From a virus (taxonomy: Duplodnaviria > Heunggongvirae > Uroviricota > Caudoviricetes): a stretch of DNA of 19,381 nt. Position 1 is the stretch's first letter. Each line of letters opens with the position of its first letter. Of this stretch, positions 1 to 18,157 are shown one piece after another. The translations under genes and the position numbers were made by a program. The stretch spans positions 1 to 19,381 of IMG/VR virus record IMGVR_UViG_2861069343_000003; one strand, 5' to 3'. Below the pieces are notes generated by a model. The model saw only the letters and a list, made by a program, of their open reading frames with translations. It had not been told where the DNA came from and ran no database searches.

Positions 1-552
1 ATGCATGACAATATTTGGTTTACATATAAAGCACGTATCCAAGCGCACCATCGACTAGAATGGCTTGAAAAACACTCTCAATTTATCCTCGTTTGGTATG
101 CTATATTGAGTGCGGTACTTTCAATTGTAACGTTGCGATTTCCAAAGGTTCTAGGAGATAATACAGATATCGTTGCGGCGATACTTTCAGTGGCTCTACT
201 GGGTATTTCTCTGATCGTATCTAACCTAGATTTTCGTGGTCGAGCAATAGCTATGAGAAGGAATTATATTGCACTACAGCGACTCTATTTTGACATTACC
301 ACCAGTCAACAGTTATCTCTTGAACAGAAAGAAAAATATTTTAATTTGCTCAATGAGGTTGAGAATCACCGTGACATAGATGATAAAATTTCAAGGGTAA
401 CTCAAGTTGGACTTAAGACGAGGATCCCCACACAAAAAGAAAAAATAATTGTTATTTTATGGATATTACTTCGAATATTTATTACTGCCGCACTTTATAT
501 ACTCCCATTAATATATCTTTGGATTGACTATGACTGCAAGCAGAATTTTTAA
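1..552 (+). CDS. Small integral membrane protein with a SLATT-like architecture (two N-proximal TM helices, a soluble helical segment and a C-terminal TM helix). It is the upstream partner of the reverse transcriptase. It may be 5'-partial because the ORF begins at base 1 of the window.
   Basis: 183-aa ORF. Hydrophobic helices occur at about aa 28–46 (FILVWYAILSAVLSIVTL), 57–76 (IVAAILSVALLGISLIVSNL) and 148–172 (IIVILWILLRIFITAALYILPLIYLW). GC is very low (~30%), unlike the neighbouring phage DNA. The 3' end overlaps the RT start by 29 nt (ATGACTATGACTGCAAGC), which suggests translational coupling. The SLATT assignment rests on architecture and context, not a database hit. Confidence 0.5.
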   Translation: MHDNIWFTYKARIQAHHRLEWLEKHSQFILVWYAILSAVLSIVTLRFPKVLGDNTDIVAAILSVALLGISLIVSNLDFRGRAIAMRRNYIALQRLYFDITTSQQLSLEQKEKYFNLLNEVENHRDIDDKISRVTQVGLKTRIPTQKEKIIVILWILLRIFITAALYILPLIYLWIDYDCKQNF

Positions 553-1900
553 AAAGTCATTCTCGAAAAAAAACCTTCTAAAAGTATACTCTGAAAAAAT
601 CAAAGAATCAGGAGCGATTGGCATAGATCGGATTCGCCCATCAAAACTTGATTTGACAATAAAAAATGAGATCACTTTCATTTTTGAAAAGGTTAATTCT
701 GGCAATTACAAATTTACAGCATATAAAGAAAAATTAATATCTAAAGGCGCTAACTCTACACCCAGACAGATTTCCATACCAACTGCTAGGGACAGAATTA
801 CTCTTAGAGCTCTCTGTGAATGCCTTACGGAAATATATCCTAAGTCCAGATTAAAACTACCACATACAGTAATTGACTCATTGAAAGAAGCATTAAACAA
901 CAGTCTATATGCTGAATATGCAAAAATAGATCTTAAAAGTTTCTATCCTTCAATTGAACATAAATTGATAATTAATGCAATAAAAAATAAAATTAGAAAA
1001 AAAGAAATTAGACAGTTAATAACATCATCATTAATCGTGCCTACTGTAAGTGGAACCACAGGAAGCAAAGGTATCCCTAATAATACCAGAGGAGTACCTC
1101 AGGGATTAGCGATATCAAACATTTTAGCTGAAATATCACTATCTAATTTCGATGATGAAATCAATAAAATGCATGACATATGGTACATGCGATACGTTGA
1201 TGACATTCTTATTTTAACACCAAAATATCAAGCAACAAAAATAGCTTCTCATATCATTGATAAGCTTCAATCATTAAATTTAAACCCACATCCATTAAAT
1301 GAAGAGAACTCAAAATCCAAAGTAGGCAGTTTGGATGAAAGTTTTAACTTTTTGGGATACCACATAGAAAATCGAGAATTATTGATAAAACATGAGAGCA
1401 TTCTTAGATTTGAGTCATCCTTAGCAAAAATTTTTACTGCATATAGGCACGCTCTACTACAAGCTAAAAGTAAGCGTGATAAAGAACGAGCTGTTGCATA
1501 TTGTCAGTGGAAACTAAATCTCAGAATTACGGGATGTGTGTTTGAAGGTAAACGATTGGGATGGGTATCGTACTTCTCACAAATAACCTCAACAGCTCAA
1601 CTTCGCTCTGTTAATCATACTATCAATAATCTTATCCGCCGATTCGGCCTTTCATCAGAAATAAAACCAAAATCTTTGATTAAAACTTTCTATGAACTCC
1701 GCAGAGGTAGAGCGGAGACTTTTAAATACATACCTAACTTTGACAATCTACATATATCTCAGAAACGAGAACTTGTTTCTATGTGGATAGGTAAAGAGAA
1801 GGAAAAAAAACTTAGCAATAGTGAAATAGAGAGGAAGTTTAAATTTAAAATTGCGAAATCAGTAAAAGAGCTTGAAGAGGATATTTCAGGAATATCATAG
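524..1900 (+). CDS. Reverse transcriptase, prokaryotic defence-associated type (UG/Abi-like or retron-like). It has a complete finger/palm motif set and a ~200-aa alpha-helical C-terminal extension.
   Basis: 458-aa ORF. RT motifs are visible: GIDRIRPS (motif 1), RQISIPTARDRITLRAL (motif 2), AKIDLKSFYPSIEHKLI (motif 3), RGVPQGLAISNILAEISL (motif 4, QGxxxSP type; DNA ~1091–1111), YMRYVDDILIL (motif 5 with YVDD catalytic box; DNA ~1194–1205) and FLGY (motif 7). There is no maturase/X, Zn-finger or endonuclease domain, so it is not a group II intron. There is no DGR-type I/LGxxxSQ motif 4. It is AT-rich (~32% GC). The alternative start at 530 (MTASRIF) cannot be excluded. Confidence 0.85.
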   Translation: MTMTASRIFKKSFSKKNLLKVYSEKIKESGAIGIDRIRPSKLDLTIKNEITFIFEKVNSGNYKFTAYKEKLISKGANSTPRQISIPTARDRITLRALCECLTEIYPKSRLKLPHTVIDSLKEALNNSLYAEYAKIDLKSFYPSIEHKLIINAIKNKIRKKEIRQLITSSLIVPTVSGTTGSKGIPNNTRGVPQGLAISNILAEISLSNFDDEINKMHDIWYMRYVDDILILTPKYQATKIASHIIDKLQSLNLNPHPLNEENSKSKVGSLDESFNFLGYHIENRELLIKHESILRFESSLAKIFTAYRHALLQAKSKRDKERAVAYCQWKLNLRITGCVFEGKRLGWVSYFSQITSTAQLRSVNHTINNLIRRFGLSSEIKPKSLIKTFYELRRGRAETFKYIPNFDNLHISQKRELVSMWIGKEKEKKLSNSEIERKFKFKIAKSVKELEEDISGIS

Positions 1901-1963
1901 ATATGTAATCCATTAAGTCATTAAAATATATCGCAATAAACACACTATTTAAACTCACAAACC

Positions 1964-2003
1964 AGCCGCAGTATCCTGCCATGGCAAGTTGCTGCGGCTT
2001 TTT
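1964..2003. terminator. Hairpin plus T-run terminator closing the RT operon. It probably acts bidirectionally for the convergent minus-strand small gene.
   Basis: The stem AGCCGCAG (1964–1971) pairs with CTGCGGCT (1992–1999). Its interior holds the self-complementary TGCCATGGCA. It is followed by TTTTT (1999–2003) on the plus strand. On the minus strand the same stem is followed by GGTTTGTGAGTTT. Confidence 0.6.
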
Positions 2004-2007
2004 ATGT

Positions 2008-2301
2008 TCAACGGATCAACAGCCAGATCAGAAGACACGCTACCATCGGCACAGCAAAATCCATCAGGCTTGCCACATCCCATGCGCGTGGATCAAAACC
2101 GCCCCACCACGGCATGTTAATCCGCTTGCCATGCCCGAACATTTCAATCCAGCGATATTATGCTTGGGTGTGTTCGCCCGCAATGAAGAACGTACAACTG
2201 GCTATCGCTCCGTAAACCCAGTTTCCGGTAAAAAGCCCCACCAGTATCTGCGCAGCCACAGCACAAAGTGCATGAAGGAAAGGTGTTATACCCATTTTCA
2301 T
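2008..2301 (-). pseudogene. Small hydrophobic (membrane) protein gene interrupted by an in-frame TAA at codon 48 (plus-strand 2158–2160).
   Basis: The reverse-strand frame reads MKMGITPFLHALCAVAAQILVGLFTGNWVYGAIASCTFFIAGEHTQA*YRWIEMFGHGKRINMPWWGGFDPRAWDVASLMDFAVPMVACLLIWLLIR*. This is 96 codons with a single internal ochre stop and otherwise continuous coding character. The overlapping plus-strand ORF 1981..2313 has a wrong-frame-like composition rich in C, H, R and P. Confidence 0.45.
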
Positions 2302-2337
2302 CCTACCCAATAAAACGGGGCGCACAGCCCCTTAATA

Positions 2338-5300
2338 TTATTTAGAGGCAAGCGCCGCCTCAATTGCAGATAATCTTTGTTTTAATTCTGCGTTTTCTTC
2401 TTCCAGCGAGGTAACGCGATCATCTGTTTCACGGGCGACCTGAACAAGTAAACCCGTCACGGCGGCGTAGTCAACATTAAGATAGCGCGTTTCTTCGCGT
2501 AGCTCGTTGCCGTCAACGGTCGGGCCTTGCAACTCTTCACCGTAATGGATGAATGAACCAACGGCCTCCGGGATGGCCTCTTCAACTTCCTGGGCTATAA
2601 CCCCGGCGCAATGTGCCCCATTCTCCTTGAGCGTGTACGTGTATCCATTAATTTTGCGGATTGCGTCAGTCGCGTTATCGATAATCTCGATATTTTCTTT
2701 CAGTCTGCGGTCTGATGACTGATTCAGTGTGGTGCAGTTAACACTTCCGTTTACAGTAAGGTTTTGCCCGTCTGTTGTTTTTTGCGCATAAAACAGATAC
2801 GCAGCAGACGTGCCAACCTCAAAAACGTTTTGTCGAGTACTGGAACCCCACACCCTGATACTAACTGGTAGTTCTGAATTACCTGAATTAAGTAAAGCAA
2901 AACGATTGCCAGTCCCTGTTTGTTTTCTAATTACTAAATCGGCAGTTGAGTTAACCTCATCTTTGTTGATGGTTAGCGCCTGTGCTGTAGCACCGTTGAC
3001 AGTACCGCTTAGTAGTTGCACCGCGCCATCATCGCCATTTAACAGCACTTGAGCGCTGCTTCTGTGGTTTTTAAGGCACAACATTTTTCCCGTGTTTTTC
3101 GATGTACCTACTGACCACGCCGAATTGGTTCCAGTGCTATCAACACCGCGCACAGCACAATTCATACTACTGTAATCTGACGTACTCCCCAGCACATCAA
3201 CACGCCCGCCGCCTAATTTTGATGGAGTCGTCGAGGTTAACGACCTGACGGTTACATCCTGATTCCATCCTGAAACAACTACCTGACTCCACTCCGTCCA
3301 ACTTCCATTGACAACAAAGCGAACGTATATGCGTTTTGTGTCGCTGCCAATCAGCGTTTGCATGATCGCATAATCTGAACCCGTAGTTTTACGAGTAGAT
3401 TCTACACGTAGCAAAAAGTTACCGCTTACGCCGTCAGGCTTATTGGTAATATATGCACCACCTGCGACAGTTTTGCATTGATAGTATTTAACAGATCCAG
3501 CCACTGTATTAGCAATGATCAAGTCGTTTAAATCAATAGTCTTGTTGTCAATGGTTTCCGGCTCGATAGATCCCGCCATACCTGCGTTAAATGTGGCAAG
3601 GTCAGAAAAGGTTGTTTTACCGCCTACCGTCACCCCGCTATCGAGTTTTGCTTGTGTGATTACTTTGCTGTTTTTTGTGTGGTCAGAATAACTACCAAAA
3701 TACAAATCACCGTCACCAGCTATACCCAGGTATTTTTGATCAACATCATCAACCTTAAACCCAATGGACAAGTTTTTAATTGTGTTGTTGCTCGTTAAAA
3801 CCAAAGGCGTATGCTGAGATCCTTTGATGCTTACCGTAGTGTTATCGGAACTGGTGCTTGTGTTTGCAAATTCTGCGGTGGCTGCGCTGATTTTGTAAGT
3901 TATTTTTAGATTGCGGGCCTCAACCCTCCCGTCGTGGCGAACAATAAAATCACCACTTGATTCACCTTTTGTGTTTTTCGCCCTGATGTGGATTTCGCCA
4001 AGTGATTCGTTGTTTTCAGGCGACCAAACAACGCCGCGCTCGCTTCCGTCGTTGTTCATGAACCACAGATGAGCGGTTCCTTTTGCTGATTTTAGCCTGA
4101 TAGATGGCGTTTCTTTCAATATATCAAGATCACCAGACATAACATCGCCGGATTTTTTCACCTGCGCATCGTTCGTTACGTTGCCAAGTCCAACATCCGA
4201 TTTCGACGGCTTGTTTGCCGAGCCGTATAGCTCATTGACGCTAAAAGTCCCGTTGTTAAGCCGGGCATCGTTGCCGGCATAGATCTTAATCTTCGCGGTT
4301 GAGTAGTCGATATTGATCGCTGACCACGTATCGCCGCACCGCGAGAATATACCAGAACCGTGGCTATAAATGGTCGCCGTGCTTCCGGTCGGCCTATCAC
4401 CGCGCCAGAAATGACCACCTTTGTCACGCAGAGCTTTTAAGATCTCTACATCGCTCATCTTGCCGTTTGTTGATATCCCGCTACCGCCAAGACCGAAAGC
4501 GCCTGTAAGCATAGCATTAGAAAGACCCAAATCTGCTTTAGTCGGCTTGTTTAACTGGTCGTAAATCCTTACAACGGGGCTTTCAACATATCCAGAAGGC
4601 GCGGCGGTTTGCTTAACAAATCCGTCTGGAATGTATAATTCCGGGCGTGCCGTCTGCGCCAGTACCGCAACCTTTGCGCCGTTGATAAATGCGCGCTGGA
4701 AGGCCCAAACCTCAATAAAGCCGTCACCTTTAACCAGGCCGTAACGCATCTGGTTGTTATCGGTCAGCCCGGTTGACCCTAAGCGGCGTATACTCAGATG
4801 ACGAGAAACATTATCCGCACTAAGCAAAGAAGGCAGACCGCGCGCCGAGATCTCGATAAAGTCAATGTTTCCGTAAGGGGAGCCGTAGTTACCAGCGTTA
4901 GTAACCATTAGCGTTACATGGCAATTGCCGCTTCCGGGATCGGAAAGTTTCGCGATCTTTATGTAAAAAGACTCATTACCAGTAACAACGGGCCAATCGT
5001 ATTGCGTCATCGGGCTGACGAGTCCCCCGACCTTGTCGAGATATTCTTTCGCCTTGTTCTCTGACGCTTTAGCGTTGGTTTCGCTGACCTTTGCTGCTGC
5101 CTCACTATTTTTCGCGTTGGTTTCTGATTTTTTGGCTGCTGTCGCGGAGTTTGCCGATGCAGTTTGTGAGTCTGCTGCCGCCTGTGCGCTGTTATCCGCA
5201 TTCGTCTCAGACGTTTTTGCGGCCTTCGCGGAATTTCCTGCTGCCGTTGCCGAGGAAGCTGCACTGCCGGCGCTCGAGGCAGCGCTCGTTTCTGATGATT

Positions 5301-6039
5301 TTGCCGCCACTTTTGAAGCCGACGCATCCCGGGCTGAGGTGGCAGCTTCTGACGCTTTCGTGGTCGCGGTGGATGCAGAAGTGGCCGCAGATTTTTGTGA
5401 TGCTGCGGCATTCGTTTCTGACGTTTTCGCTGCACCGGCACTGGTGGCTGCCGCGCTTTTTGAAGACTCTGCAGCGGCAGCACTTTTTGATGCTTCAGTA
5501 GCCTTTGTTGATGCCGTTCCTGCGCTGGAAGACGCTGACTGAGCCGACGACGCGGCCTGTCCGGCTGACGTGCTGGCTGCGCGTGCGGAGTCCGCAGCAT
5601 CAGTCGCATGGGTTGCCGCCTCACGGGCTGATGTGCGGGCATCACTGGCTGACTTCTTCGCGGCTGCCGTGTTCTGTGCTACTGCGGACGCGTTACGCGC
5701 CACCTCTTCCACCATCAGTTCAAAGCGGCGCAGTGCCTCCGGACGGACATCATCCTCCGTCATGGCACCGAGAAAATCATTCAGCGTACCCGGTTGTGAG
5801 TCTTCATACACGGTGATGGTCCCGGCATGCGATGGCGGGAAGCCTTCCACCAACAGAATAACGCTGTACTGACCGTACTCAACGTCCATGCTGTAACGCC
5901 CGGCTTCATCCGGGTTTTCTGAGGCCACTGTGTTCACCACCACCGTGGTGCTGTTGCGCCTGGCCTTTAGCTGAATGGTGCAGTTTTGTATCGGCTTACC
6001 TGCGCCATCTTTCAGTACACCTGAAATCCGTACTGCCAT
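2338..6039 (-). CDS. stf: Side tail fibre protein (1233 aa) with three parts. The N-terminus is like the lambda Stf tail-attachment domain. The shaft is a long Ala/Ser/Thr-rich degenerate repeat (DNA ~5052–5697). The C-terminus is a self-cleaving intramolecular chaperone domain (CIMCD, peptidase S74-like; DNA ~2341–2715).
   Basis: The N-terminus MAVRISGVLKDGAGKPIQNCTIQLKARRNSTTVVVNTVASENPDEAGRYSMDVEYGQYSVIL is near-identical in pattern to lambda Stf. AAKTSETNA-type repeats occur in the shaft. The C-terminal ...NQSSDRRLKENIEIIDNATDAIRKINGYTYTL... carries the S-D-x-x-L-K-x-N-I autoproteolysis signature of endosialidase-type chaperone domains and ends in a coiled coil (EEENAELKQRLSAIEAALASK). 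No separate tfa gene follows it. Confidence 0.85.
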   Translation of the reverse strand: MAVRISGVLKDGAGKPIQNCTIQLKARRNSTTVVVNTVASENPDEAGRYSMDVEYGQYSVILLVEGFPPSHAGTITVYEDSQPGTLNDFLGAMTEDDVRPEALRRFELMVEEVARNASAVAQNTAAAKKSASDARTSAREAATHATDAADSARAASTSAGQAASSAQSASSSAGTASTKATEASKSAAAAESSKSAAATSAGAAKTSETNAAASQKSAATSASTATTKASEAATSARDASASKVAAKSSETSAASSAGSAASSATAAGNSAKAAKTSETNADNSAQAAADSQTASANSATAAKKSETNAKNSEAAAKVSETNAKASENKAKEYLDKVGGLVSPMTQYDWPVVTGNESFYIKIAKLSDPGSGNCHVTLMVTNAGNYGSPYGNIDFIEISARGLPSLLSADNVSRHLSIRRLGSTGLTDNNQMRYGLVKGDGFIEVWAFQRAFINGAKVAVLAQTARPELYIPDGFVKQTAAPSGYVESPVVRIYDQLNKPTKADLGLSNAMLTGAFGLGGSGISTNGKMSDVEILKALRDKGGHFWRGDRPTGSTATIYSHGSGIFSRCGDTWSAINIDYSTAKIKIYAGNDARLNNGTFSVNELYGSANKPSKSDVGLGNVTNDAQVKKSGDVMSGDLDILKETPSIRLKSAKGTAHLWFMNNDGSERGVVWSPENNESLGEIHIRAKNTKGESSGDFIVRHDGRVEARNLKITYKISAATAEFANTSTSSDNTTVSIKGSQHTPLVLTSNNTIKNLSIGFKVDDVDQKYLGIAGDGDLYFGSYSDHTKNSKVITQAKLDSGVTVGGKTTFSDLATFNAGMAGSIEPETIDNKTIDLNDLIIANTVAGSVKYYQCKTVAGGAYITNKPDGVSGNFLLRVESTRKTTGSDYAIMQTLIGSDTKRIYVRFVVNGSWTEWSQVVVSGWNQDVTVRSLTSTTPSKLGGGRVDVLGSTSDYSSMNCAVRGVDSTGTNSAWSVGTSKNTGKMLCLKNHRSSAQVLLNGDDGAVQLLSGTVNGATAQALTINKDEVNSTADLVIRKQTGTGNRFALLNSGNSELPVSIRVWGSSTRQNVFEVGTSAAYLFYAQKTTDGQNLTVNGSVNCTTLNQSSDRRLKENIEIIDNATDAIRKINGYTYTLKENGAHCAGVIAQEVEEAIPEAVGSFIHYGEELQGPTVDGNELREETRYLNVDYAAVTGLLVQVARETDDRVTSLEEENAELKQRLSAIEAALASK

Positions 6040-11599: not shown

Positions 11600-12085
11600 T
11601 TACTGCGAAAGTTTGTTAATGGAAAGGAAGCCGCCAAAGTTGCCGACGTTATTGCGGAACTTACAACCGCTCAGGCATTTGCTGCATTTATCCTTCGTGA
11701 TATCGGACGTTGGCTGGTCATATTCATCCGCGACAGCCGGACCGCTATAACCGCACTCGTCACCGCGATAGGTCCAGGTGCAGGTGTTGGCCAGCATGAT
11801 ACGTCCCGGAAAAACAGCGCCATCCGTTTCCGTCGGCGTGGACAGTACAAAGGAGGCACTCACCGCGCTCAGTTCGCTGCACTGCTCAATGCGCCAGCGG
11901 CTGATCACCTCCTGCTCCGGATCGGCATAACTGTTTCCGTTGACGAAGTTCACCGCATCCAGAAAACGGGCGTAAACATTACGCCGGACCACCGTTCCGC
12001 CGACCAGACTCTGCATATCTTCCGCCATCCCGGTGACCATACCGTACAGGTTAGAAACCGTCAGCGTGGGGCGCGTACCGCTCTT
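11600..12085 (-). pseudogene. L: Minor tail protein L, 5'-truncated remnant. Only the C-terminal ~160 codons are present and there is no start codon in homologous context.
   Basis: The frame reads ...KKSGTRPTLTVSNLYGMVTGMAEDMQSLVGGTVVRRNVYARFLDAVNFVNG...FGGFLSINKLSQ*. It matches lambda gpL from its TRPTLTVSNLYGM region to the C-terminus. Upstream of ~12085 the frame hits a stop (plus-strand 12107–12109) and L similarity ends. The first in-frame ATG is at 12040. Confidence 0.75.
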
Positions 12086-12225
12086 TTTACAAAACAGAGA
12101 AGAGCATCACCGGACGACGGGCTCATAACCCAATCCATCCGGGCGGCAGTCACCGCAGGTGTTCTTCTCTGTTTTGTGGAGAAACCAACCGACCTTGCAG
12201 GGTCGATATGATGGGGAGCAGCAAA

Positions 12226-15115: not shown

Positions 15116-15309
15116 TGAACAACTTAATGACAACTAAACAAGTCGCCGACTTCTGTGGCGTTTCAGTATCGACAGTTCTTCGCTGGAACAGCGTAAACAG
15201 GAGAACTGGCCAGAAATATAGGCCTGACTTTCCAGATCCTGATATTAAATCCTGCCCCAATAAATGGGCATCACACAAGATATACAGGTTTGCGGGAGTT
15301 ATTGAGTAA
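15115..15309 (+). CDS. Small winged-helix/HTH DNA-binding protein of the Xis/AlpA/TorI excisionase-regulator family
   Basis: The 64-aa ORF has an HTH at TTKQVADFCGVSVSTVLRW. It is the last gene of the yfd block, exactly where torI sits in KplE1 (recalled from memory, not searched). It overlaps the previous stop (TAATGA). Confidence 0.6.
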   Translation: MNNLMTTKQVADFCGVSVSTVLRWNSVNRRTGQKYRPDFPDPDIKSCPNKWASHKIYRFAGVIE

Positions 15310-15323
15310 TACGTATTAGTTCA

Positions 15324-15389
15324 GATGTGAGCTAACACATCTATGGCACAGAGCTAAACCTAATCTGACTGTCTACTCTGTGCCATAAG
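15324..15389. terminator. Pair of hairpins between the convergent torI-like gene and the 870-aa gene. They are likely bidirectional terminators and/or part of a prophage-end attachment region.
   Basis: GATGTG-agctaa-CACATC lies at 15324–15341. The perfect 12-bp inverted repeat TATGGCACAGAG ... CTCTGTGCCATA lies at 15342–15353 and 15376–15387. They sit in the 133-bp AT-rich spacer between the two stop codons. Confidence 0.4.
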
Positions 15390-15442
15390 TGGATGTTAAT
15401 TACTTCTTGGTATTTTAATGGTTGGATAGCTTATCAAGATTA

Positions 15443-18055
15443 CTAATCACCCTGTGATGTAAAATAAAACCAATGGTATTCTAGAGCTTGCATAGACAAC
15501 CCAACCTTGTCCCTCAATAGGACACCATTCAGCTCCTGATAGTACCTATCGCGCACCATATCACTTACGTGAATCCTTAAAGTCGCTGGGTCAATAGATA
15601 TTAGATAGTTATCAAAGAGACGATGTATATCAGTACGCAATAACAAGCCATTTTTTATATGATTATCCTTATCTCCTCTGTAAGGATAAATATGAGCTGC
15701 ATCAAGTACTGCTATTGTTTTGCACCCAGTAAAGGCACATTGCCCCCAAACGTTTATCAGTTTATTTCTGAAGTCGCTTTGACCTATACGTATCGTGACG
15801 TTTCTATTTATAACCTTTCGTTCATCAGAGTTATTTATTTTAAAACTCCCTGCTGTTGAAAAATCAAATTTTTCAGTCGCACTAAATATTTTTTTAGATT
15901 GTTTTTTTACTTTTGCAAGCTGTAAATCTGACTTTATTTGTAAGGGTTTTGAGTTTTCTTCATCAAACGATGGAAGTTGAAGTTCTTTAATCATGCTGGT
16001 AGATAGAAAATTTTTGTAACTCATTAACTTAAAATCTAATCCTCGCTCATAACGAATTTTAGAGAGCACTATTGCAGCTTCTTCAATGTATTTAAAACTA
16101 CTTTTCCTTTTATCCCATAATTGAGATAAACAATCTGCATTTAACCTATCATATCTTGATAAAATCTCACCCAAACTGCTGGCTTTAGCGGCGCTATCAT
16201 AGTTTATATACTGTTTTTCTTGGGAATCTTCAATGGAATCCAGAATAAAATTTATATTTACATGATTATCTGCATCTGCATCTGCAGATGCAGATGAATC
16301 ATTAAAATTATCGTAGTCAAGAGAATTTTGATCACTCCAAATAGGTAGCGATAGATAGCAAATATTATCAATGCTGTCGTCCACCAACATTAATTTTTGG
16401 TGGAGTAAAAATAATATAACTGAAGCTTCAAGGTAATTCATTTCTTGTGACAAGAATTTTTCTTTAAGCATATCAAAGTCATATTGTACGTATTCATTTT
16501 TTTTCTTTGATATTACGGAGAGTTGCTCTTCACTTAAGACCACTGGCCTGTCTTCTGATATATTACGAAGTAAGTATGAAATCAATTTTTTTTGATTTTT
16601 TTTAGAATCTTCAGACCTAGGAGGTTCGAGAAACACACCTTCAAGTCTATCCAATGCTTTAAGGCAACTTCCCGCAAGCCTAGTCATCGCATCTTTTCTT
16701 GTTTGAATTAGAGGATCTGCATAGATAACAAAATTATCCCCATTACGAATATGAGCTATTTCAAGCTGATATACATCTAGATTTTTTATAAGTTTAAATA
16801 CAAATCCGTATTTTTGCATTCTATGCAAAGTCAGTGTCGGTATAATATCTTTATTAGATTCTTCATCCAAATTATAGTTTTTTATTCTTTTGTACAACCA
16901 ATTTGTTGCAGAGGAAGAGCAAATTAACTCATTATATTGAATTTTACTATTTTTAGTTATCAGATTTAGAAGAGACATTCCAAACAATGCCTGAATACAA
17001 TCTACATAATAAGATATAGTTGTATAATCTGGATGTCCTTTATAGGGGAGAGAATCTATTGAAATAAAACCTGAGTTATAGAATCTCATAAAGTTTTTTT
17101 CAGATAACACCATGATCCCTAACGTAGTTCTGTCAATAACATTCTGTCCATTTTTTATTATCTCAAGTAGGCTTACTGAAGCTAGTAAGGAAATATAATG
17201 CGAACCTAAAGTAGCGAGATCTCTGTGCGAACTTATAGATCTATTTTTACCCTTTATTCTAGGGGGTATAAAAGCCTGGATTGAATTAAAGTTATTTGAA
17301 AAACCAAAAGCCATGTTCAATTCATTGTTGATGTAACACTCTTTAACATTCGGTTTCTGTACGCCACCCCATGCTGAAATAATACTATTAGATTTTAATA
17401 TTTGTTTTTTATTGTTTTTCAAATTCAAATGATTGCAAACTAAACTGGCAACATTATTCTCTGCTTTTTTTTTACTCTCACCACTTCCGATAAATATCTG
17501 TCCATTAGGAAGTGCTATTTCAGACTCATATATTGGTGCATGCTCGGTCCCACCAGCCAAGGTGGTTTTGTATGTAGGGATTATGTGTTGATGTCTTTGG
17601 AAATATTCATGTAAAAGAGTTTTTGGGGGTTTGCCAACAAATGACTCCGTAATAGAAAGGCTTTCAACAAAAAATTTGAGATGTAATATGATATCACAAT
17701 TAGATATCGCCCCTAGGTAAAATTGAAATATTTGAATTATCATAGAAGATGAGTTGATTTCTTCTTGTTTTACTCCAGGACCAAATTCTGTTTGTTGGTA
17801 GACTTTTGTTAAGGGAAAATTTGTAACAACAAGCTCTCTTAGTTTTTTCTTCAGGCTGCTAGTCATAATGCTTAAATTGTTACCATCCGCACCTTCTATA
17901 CTCAGAGACCGACAAGCGCAGATTAAATCCTCAAGCGACTTACCAACTGATACAGTTGCGTTAAACAATTCAGTATTGCAATTAAAAGATGAACGATGAC
18001 TTATCTGAATATAATTTTCGTTGATATGATTTATGAATAACTTATTCATTTTCAC
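15443..18055 (-). CDS. Large multidomain protein (870 aa). It has an N-proximal dsRNA-binding domain (dsRBD) preceded by a probable degenerate dsRBD, a long uncharacterised middle region with an acidic low-complexity linker, and a C-terminal HNH_2-family (His-Me finger) nuclease domain. It is a candidate single-gene defence or abortive-infection effector.
   Basis: Residues ~148–213 (DNA ~17417–17614) read KTLLHEYFQRHQHIIPTYKTTLAGGTEHAPIYESEIALPNGQIFIGSGESKKKAENNVASLVCNHL. This matches the canonical dsRBD pattern (P-x-Y ... G-x-x-H-A-P-x-F ... G-x-G-x-S-K-K-x-A ... L). Residues ~68–100 (KKKLRELVVTNFPLTKVYQQTEFGPG) look like a degenerate first dsRBD. The C-terminus (DNA ~15590–15769) reads GQCAFTGCKTIAVLDAAHIYPYRGDKDNHIKNGLLLRTDIHRLFDNYLISID, the HNH_2 pattern (C..TG...L.AAHI.P......NGL.L....H..FD). 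GC is ~29%. A strong SD (GAGGTG) and its own promoter lie upstream. Confidence 0.8.
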   Translation of the reverse strand: MKMNKLFINHINENYIQISHRSSFNCNTELFNATVSVGKSLEDLICACRSLSIEGADGNNLSIMTSSLKKKLRELVVTNFPLTKVYQQTEFGPGVKQEEINSSSMIIQIFQFYLGAISNCDIILHLKFFVESLSITESFVGKPPKTLLHEYFQRHQHIIPTYKTTLAGGTEHAPIYESEIALPNGQIFIGSGESKKKAENNVASLVCNHLNLKNNKKQILKSNSIISAWGGVQKPNVKECYINNELNMAFGFSNNFNSIQAFIPPRIKGKNRSISSHRDLATLGSHYISLLASVSLLEIIKNGQNVIDRTTLGIMVLSEKNFMRFYNSGFISIDSLPYKGHPDYTTISYYVDCIQALFGMSLLNLITKNSKIQYNELICSSSATNWLYKRIKNYNLDEESNKDIIPTLTLHRMQKYGFVFKLIKNLDVYQLEIAHIRNGDNFVIYADPLIQTRKDAMTRLAGSCLKALDRLEGVFLEPPRSEDSKKNQKKLISYLLRNISEDRPVVLSEEQLSVISKKKNEYVQYDFDMLKEKFLSQEMNYLEASVILFLLHQKLMLVDDSIDNICYLSLPIWSDQNSLDYDNFNDSSASADADADNHVNINFILDSIEDSQEKQYINYDSAAKASSLGEILSRYDRLNADCLSQLWDKRKSSFKYIEEAAIVLSKIRYERGLDFKLMSYKNFLSTSMIKELQLPSFDEENSKPLQIKSDLQLAKVKKQSKKIFSATEKFDFSTAGSFKINNSDERKVINRNVTIRIGQSDFRNKLINVWGQCAFTGCKTIAVLDAAHIYPYRGDKDNHIKNGLLLRTDIHRLFDNYLISIDPATLRIHVSDMVRDRYYQELNGVLLRDKVGLSMQALEYHWFYFTSQGD

Positions 18056-18081
18056 CTCGTGTATTATTCGATAAAGATCAC

Positions 18082-18110
18082 ATTGTACGTGATATCAACT
18101 ACTTGCTCAA
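18082..18110 (-). promoter_or_regulatory. Sigma70-like promoter for the 870-aa gene
   Basis: On the minus strand: -35 TTGAGC (plus 18105–18110), a 17-bp spacer, -10 TACAAT (plus 18082–18087), then the SD GAGGTG (~18062–18067) and ATG at 18055. Confidence 0.5.
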
Positions 18111-18157
18111 AGCAGATCGTCATATCCTATTGCGTTCTAGCTACGTAAACTATCCTA

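Follow-up and report, generated by a model that had tools for sequence, protein, structure and literature searches.

A very probable DRT10 (UG17, subtype A) anti-phage cassette as cargo of a decayed lambdoid prophage in Escherichia coli

A role in defence was predicted in 2022 for the genes of UG17-class reverse transcriptases (RTs) with SLATT partner proteins (PMC9226505), and the systems built from them were named and characterised as DRT10 (PMC12632851; bioRxiv 10.64898/2026.04.29.721553; bioRxiv 10.64898/2026.06.29.735271). DRT10 is a minimal telomerase-like, repeat-adding RT in immunity. It needs a non-coding RNA (ncRNA) of about 137-143 nt encoded 5' of the SLATT gene, and protection depending on RT, SLATT and ncRNA was reported for three E. 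coli homologues, including Eco3DRT10, as well as for the system of Escherichia sp. E3659 (PMC12632851; bioRxiv 10.64898/2026.04.29.721553). Eco3DRT10 is the homologue for which genetics, biochemistry and cryo-electron microscopy are available (PMC12632851; bioRxiv 10.64898/2026.06.29.735271). Here, we analyse the beginning of a 19,381-nt stretch of Caudoviricetes DNA (IMG/VR record IMGVR_UViG_2861069343_000003; the whole stretch is referred to as the window) together with the DNA upstream of it. The region is very probably an intact DRT10 anti-phage cassette (UG17, subtype A, Eco3-like), carried as cargo of a decayed lambdoid prophage. DRT10 is an already described system (2025-26) and the novelty of the locus is low; a preliminary description of the window had named the right kind of system.

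The protein-coding part of the cassette lies at the beginning of the window, where two intact open reading frames (ORFs) overlap:

1..552, plus strand: SLATT_5 effector gene (183 aa, three predicted transmembrane segments; RefSeq WP_069914208.1)
530..1900, plus strand: UG17 (DRT10) RT gene (456 aa; RefSeq WP_001678535.1)
530..552, plus strand: overlap of SLATT stop and RT start (23 nt)
1193..1204, plus strand: catalytic YVDD codons (RT residues 222-225)
1895..1897, plus strand: codon of the C-terminal Ser456, the priming residue by correspondence with Eco3 (the RT ends ...DISGIS, followed by the stop codon)

Searching the RT against the PADLOC profiles returned RT_UG17 with an E-value of 1.2e-158 and a score of 526 bits, covering all 429 profile positions, and RVT_1 was matched in Pfam at 8.4e-21. 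The enzyme had previously been taken for a defence RT of the UG/Abi kind with its class left unassigned; the search proposed at that time, with profile hidden Markov models for UG/Abi RT classes and SLATT families, gave UG17 for the RT and SLATT_5 for ORF1, the product of the first gene. ORF1, which had been described as a small, SLATT-like protein with three transmembrane segments, was found by hydropathy to contain hydrophobic stretches spanning residues ~25-48, 54-79 and 146-177, and to match Pfam SLATT_5 (1.8e-28), NCBIfam SLATT_5 (9.5e-40) and PADLOC RTasSLATT (1.3e-56).

The SLATT_5 gene overlaps the RT gene in the order SLATT-RT, which is the arrangement of subtype A, and this gene overlap has been described for UG17-A (bioRxiv 10.64898/2026.04.29.721553). 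While the overlapping ORFs of the preliminary description stood, its values of 458 aa for the RT and 29 nt for the overlap did not; they correspond to the alternative start TTG 524 in the ORF list, and RefSeq and the DRT10 authors use ATG 530, giving 456 aa and 23 nt. An overlap of 2-23 nt was also found in 13 of the 14 relatives from other genera introduced below, and in the window it points to translational coupling of the two genes. The catalytic motifs reported as intact, YVDD and QGLAISN, are both present in the RT. In Eco3DRT10, mutation to YVAA ends defence, S456 serves as the primer, and S456A abolishes synthesis of complementary DNA (cDNA) as well as defence (PMC12632851); YVDD, S456 and the RNA-anchoring residues R371, K385 and Y388 are all kept at the published positions in the window RT.

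Comparison with Eco3DRT10 revealed 394 of 399 identical residues for the RT (99%, with 399 residues being the compared part of the reference OKX54664 from E. coli 703491) and 179 of 183 for SLATT (98%). The reference protein sequences were taken from Table S1 of PMC12632851, in which E. coli entries with identical SLATT and near-identical RT are also present. The window itself is contained at 100% identity in E. coli AR437 (NZ_CP029108.1, 839347-858727), as well as in several further complete genomes. In RefSeq, neither the ncRNA nor DRT10 is annotated, and the only labels used are 'SLATT domain-containing protein' and 'reverse transcriptase domain-containing protein'.

DRT10 requires an upstream ncRNA and the window starts at the SLATT start codon; therefore, the upstream DNA was read in AR437 (locus L001, whose position 6001 is window base 1; positions upstream of base 1 carry a minus sign). 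The spacer between a dinI-like gene and the SLATT gene, 222 bp in length, holds a promoter and a strongly folding RNA:

about -191..-162, plus strand: ncRNA promoter TTGACT-N18-AATAAT with an upstream TG (AR437)
-155..-19 (L001 5846-5982), plus strand: DRT10 ncRNA gene of 137 nt, outside the window (AR437 sequence, fold, covariation, Eco3 numbering)

The minimum free energy of the predicted ncRNA fold was -57.6 kcal/mol (z -4.6), and none of 200 shuffled sequences folded equally well. For comparison with the published Eco3 numbering, +1 was set at L001 5846. The Eco3 landmarks then coincide along the whole RNA, namely the U-tracts around U15 and U61-64 (U62/U64), U43 and G44 of loop A, G86, G104, the linker U105-U106, the template start C107, G111, the A' element C116-U119 and the linker A120-U123. 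All published landmarks fall on the right nucleotide, which places the ncRNA at window -155..-19, upstream of base 1 as had been expected. The colinearity with the Eco3 ncRNA is based on the published position numbers and on the IHE3034 allele having the exact published template. UG17 RT, SLATT and upstream ncRNA together identify the system as DRT10.

Extending the analysis upstream thus yielded the structured ncRNA that the preliminary description had called for, but not the msr/msd with flanking inverted repeats that it had considered. Downstream of the RT gene, positions 1901-1960, which it had called unstructured, were indeed predicted to be unpaired upon folding and had no Rfam match. 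A scan of -700..2400 against Rfam (E<=1) returned a chance match to the bantam microRNA alone, and Rfam has no family for the DRT10 ncRNA. In all 40 RefSeq genomes listed among the 187 carriers described below, the ncRNA gene is unannotated.

Conservation of the ncRNA was analysed in relatives, taking one genome per species, which resulted in 15 loci. A full-length relative of the RT with 58-84% identity is encoded at 14 of the 15 (Xenorhabdus, Photorhabdus, Buttiauxella, Pseudomonas, Stutzerimonas); a homologous upstream RNA accompanies all 14 and a recognisable SLATT ORF 13 of them. RNAalifold analysis of the 15-sequence alignment gave a basal stem and four stem-loops, i.e. five helices with 35 pairs, and compensatory double changes were present at 15 of these pairs across the 15 species. 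Standard pairs are formed by 98.5% of the alignment cells vs 48-54% with the partners slid by 1-3 columns. In a test with 500 shuffles, none reached the percentage paired, the two counts of both-side changes or the covariation score, and three reached the fifth measure, the count of further pair types.

In Eco3DRT10, the template A-B comprises C107-AAUGAUUC-115 and A' is CAAU at 116-119 (PMC12632851; bioRxiv 10.64898/2026.06.29.735271). Synthesis begins opposite C116 and ends at C107, with the boundary set by the distance from the anchor at stem-loop (SL) 5 (Ramirez et al., bioRxiv 10.64898/2026.06.29.735271), and Ser456 primes the product, which is (GAATCATTG)n (PMC12632851). The same A-B-A' pattern was found here as C107-A-A-C-G-G-U-U-C115 followed by C116-A-A-U119, in loop B downstream of SL5, and the CAA...CAA anchors are invariant in the 15 species. 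The template reads CAACGGUUC then CAAU in the window allele (AR437) and CAAUGAUUC then CAAU in Eco3. A substitution at position 110 is tolerated and alters the repeat, and position 112 is part of segment B, which is permissive (PMC12632851); therefore, the predicted product of the window allele is serine-primed, single-stranded DNA of the sequence (GAACCGTTG)n, with a predicted G:U wobble at the fourth realignment position. An 8-nt register GUUC-AACG-GUUC, unique to the window allele, was considered as the main register and rejected: the 5' boundary is fixed geometrically at C107, the cDNA 3' end TTG pairs solely with the two CAA sites, and in the Pseudomonas and Photorhabdus homologues GUUC is unrepeated while CAA...CAA is repeated; over the 15 species, CAA...CAA is invariant and GUUC is not.

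Among the E. coli carriers, CAACGGUUC was found in 153 of 187 genomes and CAAUGAUUC in the other 34 (e.g. IHE3034 and CE10). The ncRNAs of AR437 and IHE3034 differ at three positions, two of which belong to the 9-nt template (Poisson P about 0.03 at a locus divergence of ~3%). Diversifying selection on the cDNA repeat sequence, for instance because a changed repeat could escape phage factors by which a given repeat is recognised or degraded, would be one explanation, albeit an unlikely one; alternatively, the template could be free to drift.

In the mechanism we propose, the 137-nt ncRNA would be transcribed from its own sigma-70 promoter, fold into the basal stem SL1 and four smaller stem-loops, and be bound as a single molecule by two RT monomers. 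The monomer at loop B would use the hydroxyl group of its C-terminal Ser456 as the primer for DNA synthesis, start opposite C116 and copy back to C107, with the boundary being fixed by RT contacts (R371 with SL5; K385 and Y388 with SL1). The cDNA 3' end (...GTTG) would then unpair and re-anneal to the downstream A' element (C116-A117-A118-U119), and repetition of this cycle would give kilobase-long single-stranded DNA of 9-nt repeats attached covalently to the RT, predicted to be (GAACCGTTG)n for the window allele. The host 3'-5' exonuclease I (SbcB) would restrain the cDNA. Upon infection, phage factors that disturb the handling of single-stranded DNA (SSB-like proteins) would alter the amount or state of the cDNA, and this change would turn on SLATT, a predicted pore former, whereby the infection would be aborted. 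Work on the 99%-identical homologue has demonstrated defence and priming by the protein, as well as the synthesis of tandem repeats and the 2:1 architecture (PMC12632851; bioRxiv 10.64898/2026.06.29.735271). By analogy, we infer that ncRNA expression, 2:1 RT:RNA assembly, serine priming, copying and realignment would apply to the window cassette, and that the cassette may be active in this strain.

How SLATT is controlled has been interpreted in different ways. Tang et al. found the cDNA to fall after infection (Eco3, Bas18) and proposed that it restrains SLATT (PMC12632851). Sanchez-Nieto et al. reported more first-strand cDNA on infection, toxicity suppressed by SbcB, and an SSB-like phage trigger (bioRxiv 10.64898/2026.04.29.721553), and in earlier genetics a UG17-carrying strain could do without sbcB only after disruption of the RT (PMC9226505). 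Activation of SLATT by accumulated or unprotected cDNA is weakly favoured here, being somewhat probable, over release from cDNA-mediated inhibition, which is a less probable but serious alternative. In the DRT10 literature, too, a membrane-depolarising effector, as suggested in the preliminary description, has so far only been predicted (PMC12632851, discussion).

The ncRNA-bearing spacer was detected in 187 of 5426 complete E. coli genomes, always on the chromosome, and the spacer with ncRNA and promoter was at least 95% identical in all of these carriers. Window positions 1-2330 are matched at an identity of at least 99% by 57 complete genomes. The cassette occurs at no fewer than three prophage integration sites (prfC, yecD/aspS, and dusA beside an integrase), at which it is always located between a dinI-like gene and the tail-fibre genes, and homology between the integration loci covers window -537..1998. 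A search of 50,697 deposited phage genomes for the cassette returned no match.

Several points weigh against interpreting the region as a functional DRT10 cassette with the predicted product. The ncRNA is located outside the window and known solely from identical public genomes, and the evidence for this exact allele comes from sequence. The template differs from that of Eco3 at two positions (U110C and A112G), making the repeat sequence a prediction, and the same substitutions create GUUC...GUUC at 8-nt spacing, a competitor in principle. Pore formation by SLATT is a prediction only; the published accounts conflict in that cDNA falls (Eco3, Bas18) or rises (E3659) on infection; and, in a prophage reduced to 20 kb, expression of the cassette in this strain is an assumption.

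Among the alternative explanations, a system that is DRT10 by sequence but functionally a silent relic in a decaying prophage fares best, although it is very unlikely. It would fit with the ~20-kb host remnant, devoid of head, lysis and regulatory genes, and with a neighbouring small ORF that is a pseudogene. The intactness of both cassette ORFs, the conservation of key residues, promoter and ncRNA helices, and the sequence identity among the 57 genomes over 1-2330 and in the spacer of all 187 carriers argue against it.

An assignment to another class-2 UG/Abi system resembling UG17, either DRT3-like (UG3/UG8) or DRT9-like, with poly(dTdG) or poly(dA) as the product, is extremely improbable. 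Drt3a was the second-best PADLOC profile for the RT (2.6e-37), the NCBIfam Drt3a model was matched with 112.6 bits, and SLATT proteins accompany DRT3 and DRT9, too. However, the 127 bits of the PADLOC Drt3a match compare with 526 bits for the full-length UG17 match, and the NCBIfam Drt3a score is under the cutoff of 200. The NCBIfam group II intron, retron and Drt2/3/4 models all stayed far short of their respective cutoffs. Furthermore, no second RT (UG8) was found, the template loop contains neither ACACAC nor a U-run, and the RT is 99% identical to that of Eco3DRT10.

Hardly any credence is given to a retron with a 2TM effector (Ec48-like), in which the upstream RNA would be an msr/msd giving branched multicopy single-stranded DNA (msDNA). 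An RT next to a small transmembrane protein and a structured RNA is superficially alike, and NCBIfam retron_St85_RT was weakly matched with 58.7 bits; this is far under the cutoff of 235, and no msr or retron family was found in the Rfam scan. The RNA is a closed five-helix structure with an internal template loop instead of a1/a2 inverted repeats and a branching G, and the RT has the DRT10 C-terminal priming serine. A remnant group II intron or diversity-generating retroelement (DGR) RT devoid of a defence role is given as little credence. A match of 144 bits to NCBIfam group_II_RT_mat (TIGR04416) and a faint GIIM match speak for it; however, the 144 bits are under the cutoff of 300, the UG17 profile fits far better, the Rfam scan (E<=1) found no group II intron RNA, and the window has no template/variable repeats and no direct repeats >42 nt, with none near the RT, in agreement with the missing group II intron and DGR hallmarks noted before.

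The boundaries of the cassette were determined by alignment with phage mEp460, which is free of DRT10. The insert corresponds to window -221..1933 (2155 bp), and the following features define its surroundings:

-222, unstranded: left junction of the cassette, at the dinI stop codon (end of dinI homology; mEp460 alignment)
1901..1933, plus strand: AT-rich 3' tail of the insert (right junction about 1933/1934; mEp460 homology resumes at 1934)
1964..1999, unstranded: hairpin and UUUUU terminator (-21.3 kcal/mol), between the convergent RT and tail-fibre-side genes
2338..6039, minus strand: tail fibre gene (continuous ORF of 1233 aa; N-terminal phage_tail_N, C-terminal Peptidase_S74 intramolecular chaperone)

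Lambdoid phages match positions 1934-2003 only, and the order at the empty site of mEp460 is int, dinI, 35 nt, terminator, small ORF and tail fibre. The hairpin was found by folding; a simple terminator scan missed it because of the long inner loop. The identical hairpin is present between dinI and the tail-fibre-side genes of the cassette-free mEp460 and is therefore a phage-backbone element, which probably acts in both directions. Hence, the strong hairpin terminator of the preliminary description is real, but it does not belong to the cargo. Likewise, the low G+C content was reproduced as AT-richness, yet not at the value of ~31%: it amounts to 33.7% over 1-2003, with a minimum of 30.6% at 501-1000, and to 52.3% in the adjoining prophage DNA. 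The tail fibre gene is convergent to the cassette, as stated previously, and the proposed moron cargo position is confirmed by a variable slot between dinI and the tail fibre, which is empty in mEp460 and occupied by serine acetyltransferase or the type III secretion system effectors EspM2 and EspW in other prophages.

The dinI-like gene (L001 5463-5778, window -537..-222; Pfam DinI 1.8e-19) has the same direction as the cassette. Two LexA-box-like CTGT-N8-ACAG motifs lie over its promoter at about L001 5472-5487 and 5502-5517, and a terminator scan detected no terminator between dinI and the ncRNA promoter. It is conceivable that this LexA-boxed promoter, 300 nt upstream, would couple the cassette to the SOS response by read-through. 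As a fourth component of DRT10, dinI was rejected: it was found in 1720 genomes, mostly without DRT10, and the homology ends at its stop codon. On the other side of the cassette, the terminator and the tail fibre gene are separated by an ORF of 95 codons (window 2008-2295, minus strand). It is a pseudogene with an internal stop here, intact in IHE3034 and mEp460, and has no match in Pfam or NCBIfam.

The prophage is a remnant of ~20 kb between prfC and yjjG, which keeps the integrase, an HNH gene and a few early genes in addition to the tail genes L'-K-I-J-lom-stf, as well as both AT-rich cargo islands; head, lysis and immunity/regulatory genes are gone. At window 11600-12211, the truncated tail gene L is fused to the early-region genes yfdP-yfdQ-yfdR and two DUF551 genes, and a 25-nt inverted repeat of 84% complementarity (12089-12113 / 12153-12177) is present at the fusion point. 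RefSeq divides the tail fibre ORF into an N-terminal pseudogene labelled 'partial' and a coding sequence of 890 aa; this division is probably an artefact of annotation. The Ala/Ser-rich part of the ORF contains 84-nt periodic repeats at 5111-5433, and tail fibre and integrase gave no match in PADLOC.

The second AT-rich island (15116-18157) contains the gene of an 868-aa protein at window 15443-18049 on the minus strand; this gene, with a GC content of 34%, directly adjoins the prophage integrase. An RNase III-type double-stranded-RNA-binding motif at residues 142-208 (Pfam dsrm, 2.6e-10) and a C-terminal HNH_2 domain at 771-820 (2e-13) were identified, with the nuclease part bearing a weak likeness to phosphorothioate-dependent restriction enzymes. 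The protein is found in 17 of the 5426 complete E. coli genomes, in all cases at an identity of at least 99%, and no defence-system profile matched it as a whole. This dsrm/HNH_2 protein is a candidate for an uncharacterised defence or cargo gene.

What the locus adds to DRT10 are local particulars, namely the majority template allele, the exact insertion boundaries and the assignment of the terminator to the phage backbone. It provides a natural and commoner template allele of the best-studied DRT10 homologue, and it is a cleanly bounded 2.15-kb cargo insertion in the lambdoid dinI/tail-fibre slot, with mEp460 as the empty-site reference. The kind of system and the position of the RNA outside the window had both been deduced correctly in the preliminary description from the sequence alone.

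Of the described systems, Eco3DRT10 shares with the locus the order ncRNA-SLATT-RT, the RT of 456 aa and the terminal Ser456. The ncRNAs are colinear nucleotide for nucleotide and alike in their five stem-loops, linkers and A' element, and differ by two substitutions in the 9-nt template (CAACGGUUC here vs CAAUGAUUC in Eco3). This translates into a predicted repeat GAACCGTTG here vs GAATCATTG in Eco3, with the window allele being the commoner one in E. coli (153 vs 34). The UG17-A system of Escherichia sp. E3659 (bioRxiv 10.64898/2026.04.29.721553) resembles the locus in the overlapping SLATT and RT genes and the independently transcribed upstream ncRNA of ~140 nt and, by analogy, would do so in the requirement for all three components and the dependence on SbcB. 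It differs in making 7-nt repeats flanked by trinucleotide motifs, and its cDNA rises on infection whereas that of Eco3 falls.

DRT9 (UG28) and DRT3 (UG3 and UG8), which are class-2 UG systems, likewise use ncRNA-templated, protein-primed repetitive cDNA as an immune intermediate; the fold of the DRT9 ncRNA is similar to that of DRT10, and SLATT is often found near DRT9 and DRT3. In contrast to DRT10, they produce poly(dA) or poly(dTdG) from inherently repetitive templates and have other oligomeric states, and SLATT, a required effector in DRT10, is an accessory there. Retrons of the Ec48 type combine a defence RT, a small membrane effector and a non-coding RNA under the same logic of abortive infection, but their branched msDNA is primed from an RNA 2'-OH, and no msr/msd was found here, neither in Rfam nor from the RNA architecture. 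Telomerase (TERT and telomerase RNA) is similar in that its internal RNA template is short and includes an alignment element that is repeated, in the template boundary being set by a structural element, and in its repeat-addition processivity. It primes from the chromosome end, whereas DRT10 primes from its own serine and, with an RT of 456 aa and two monomers per RNA, has an immune role.

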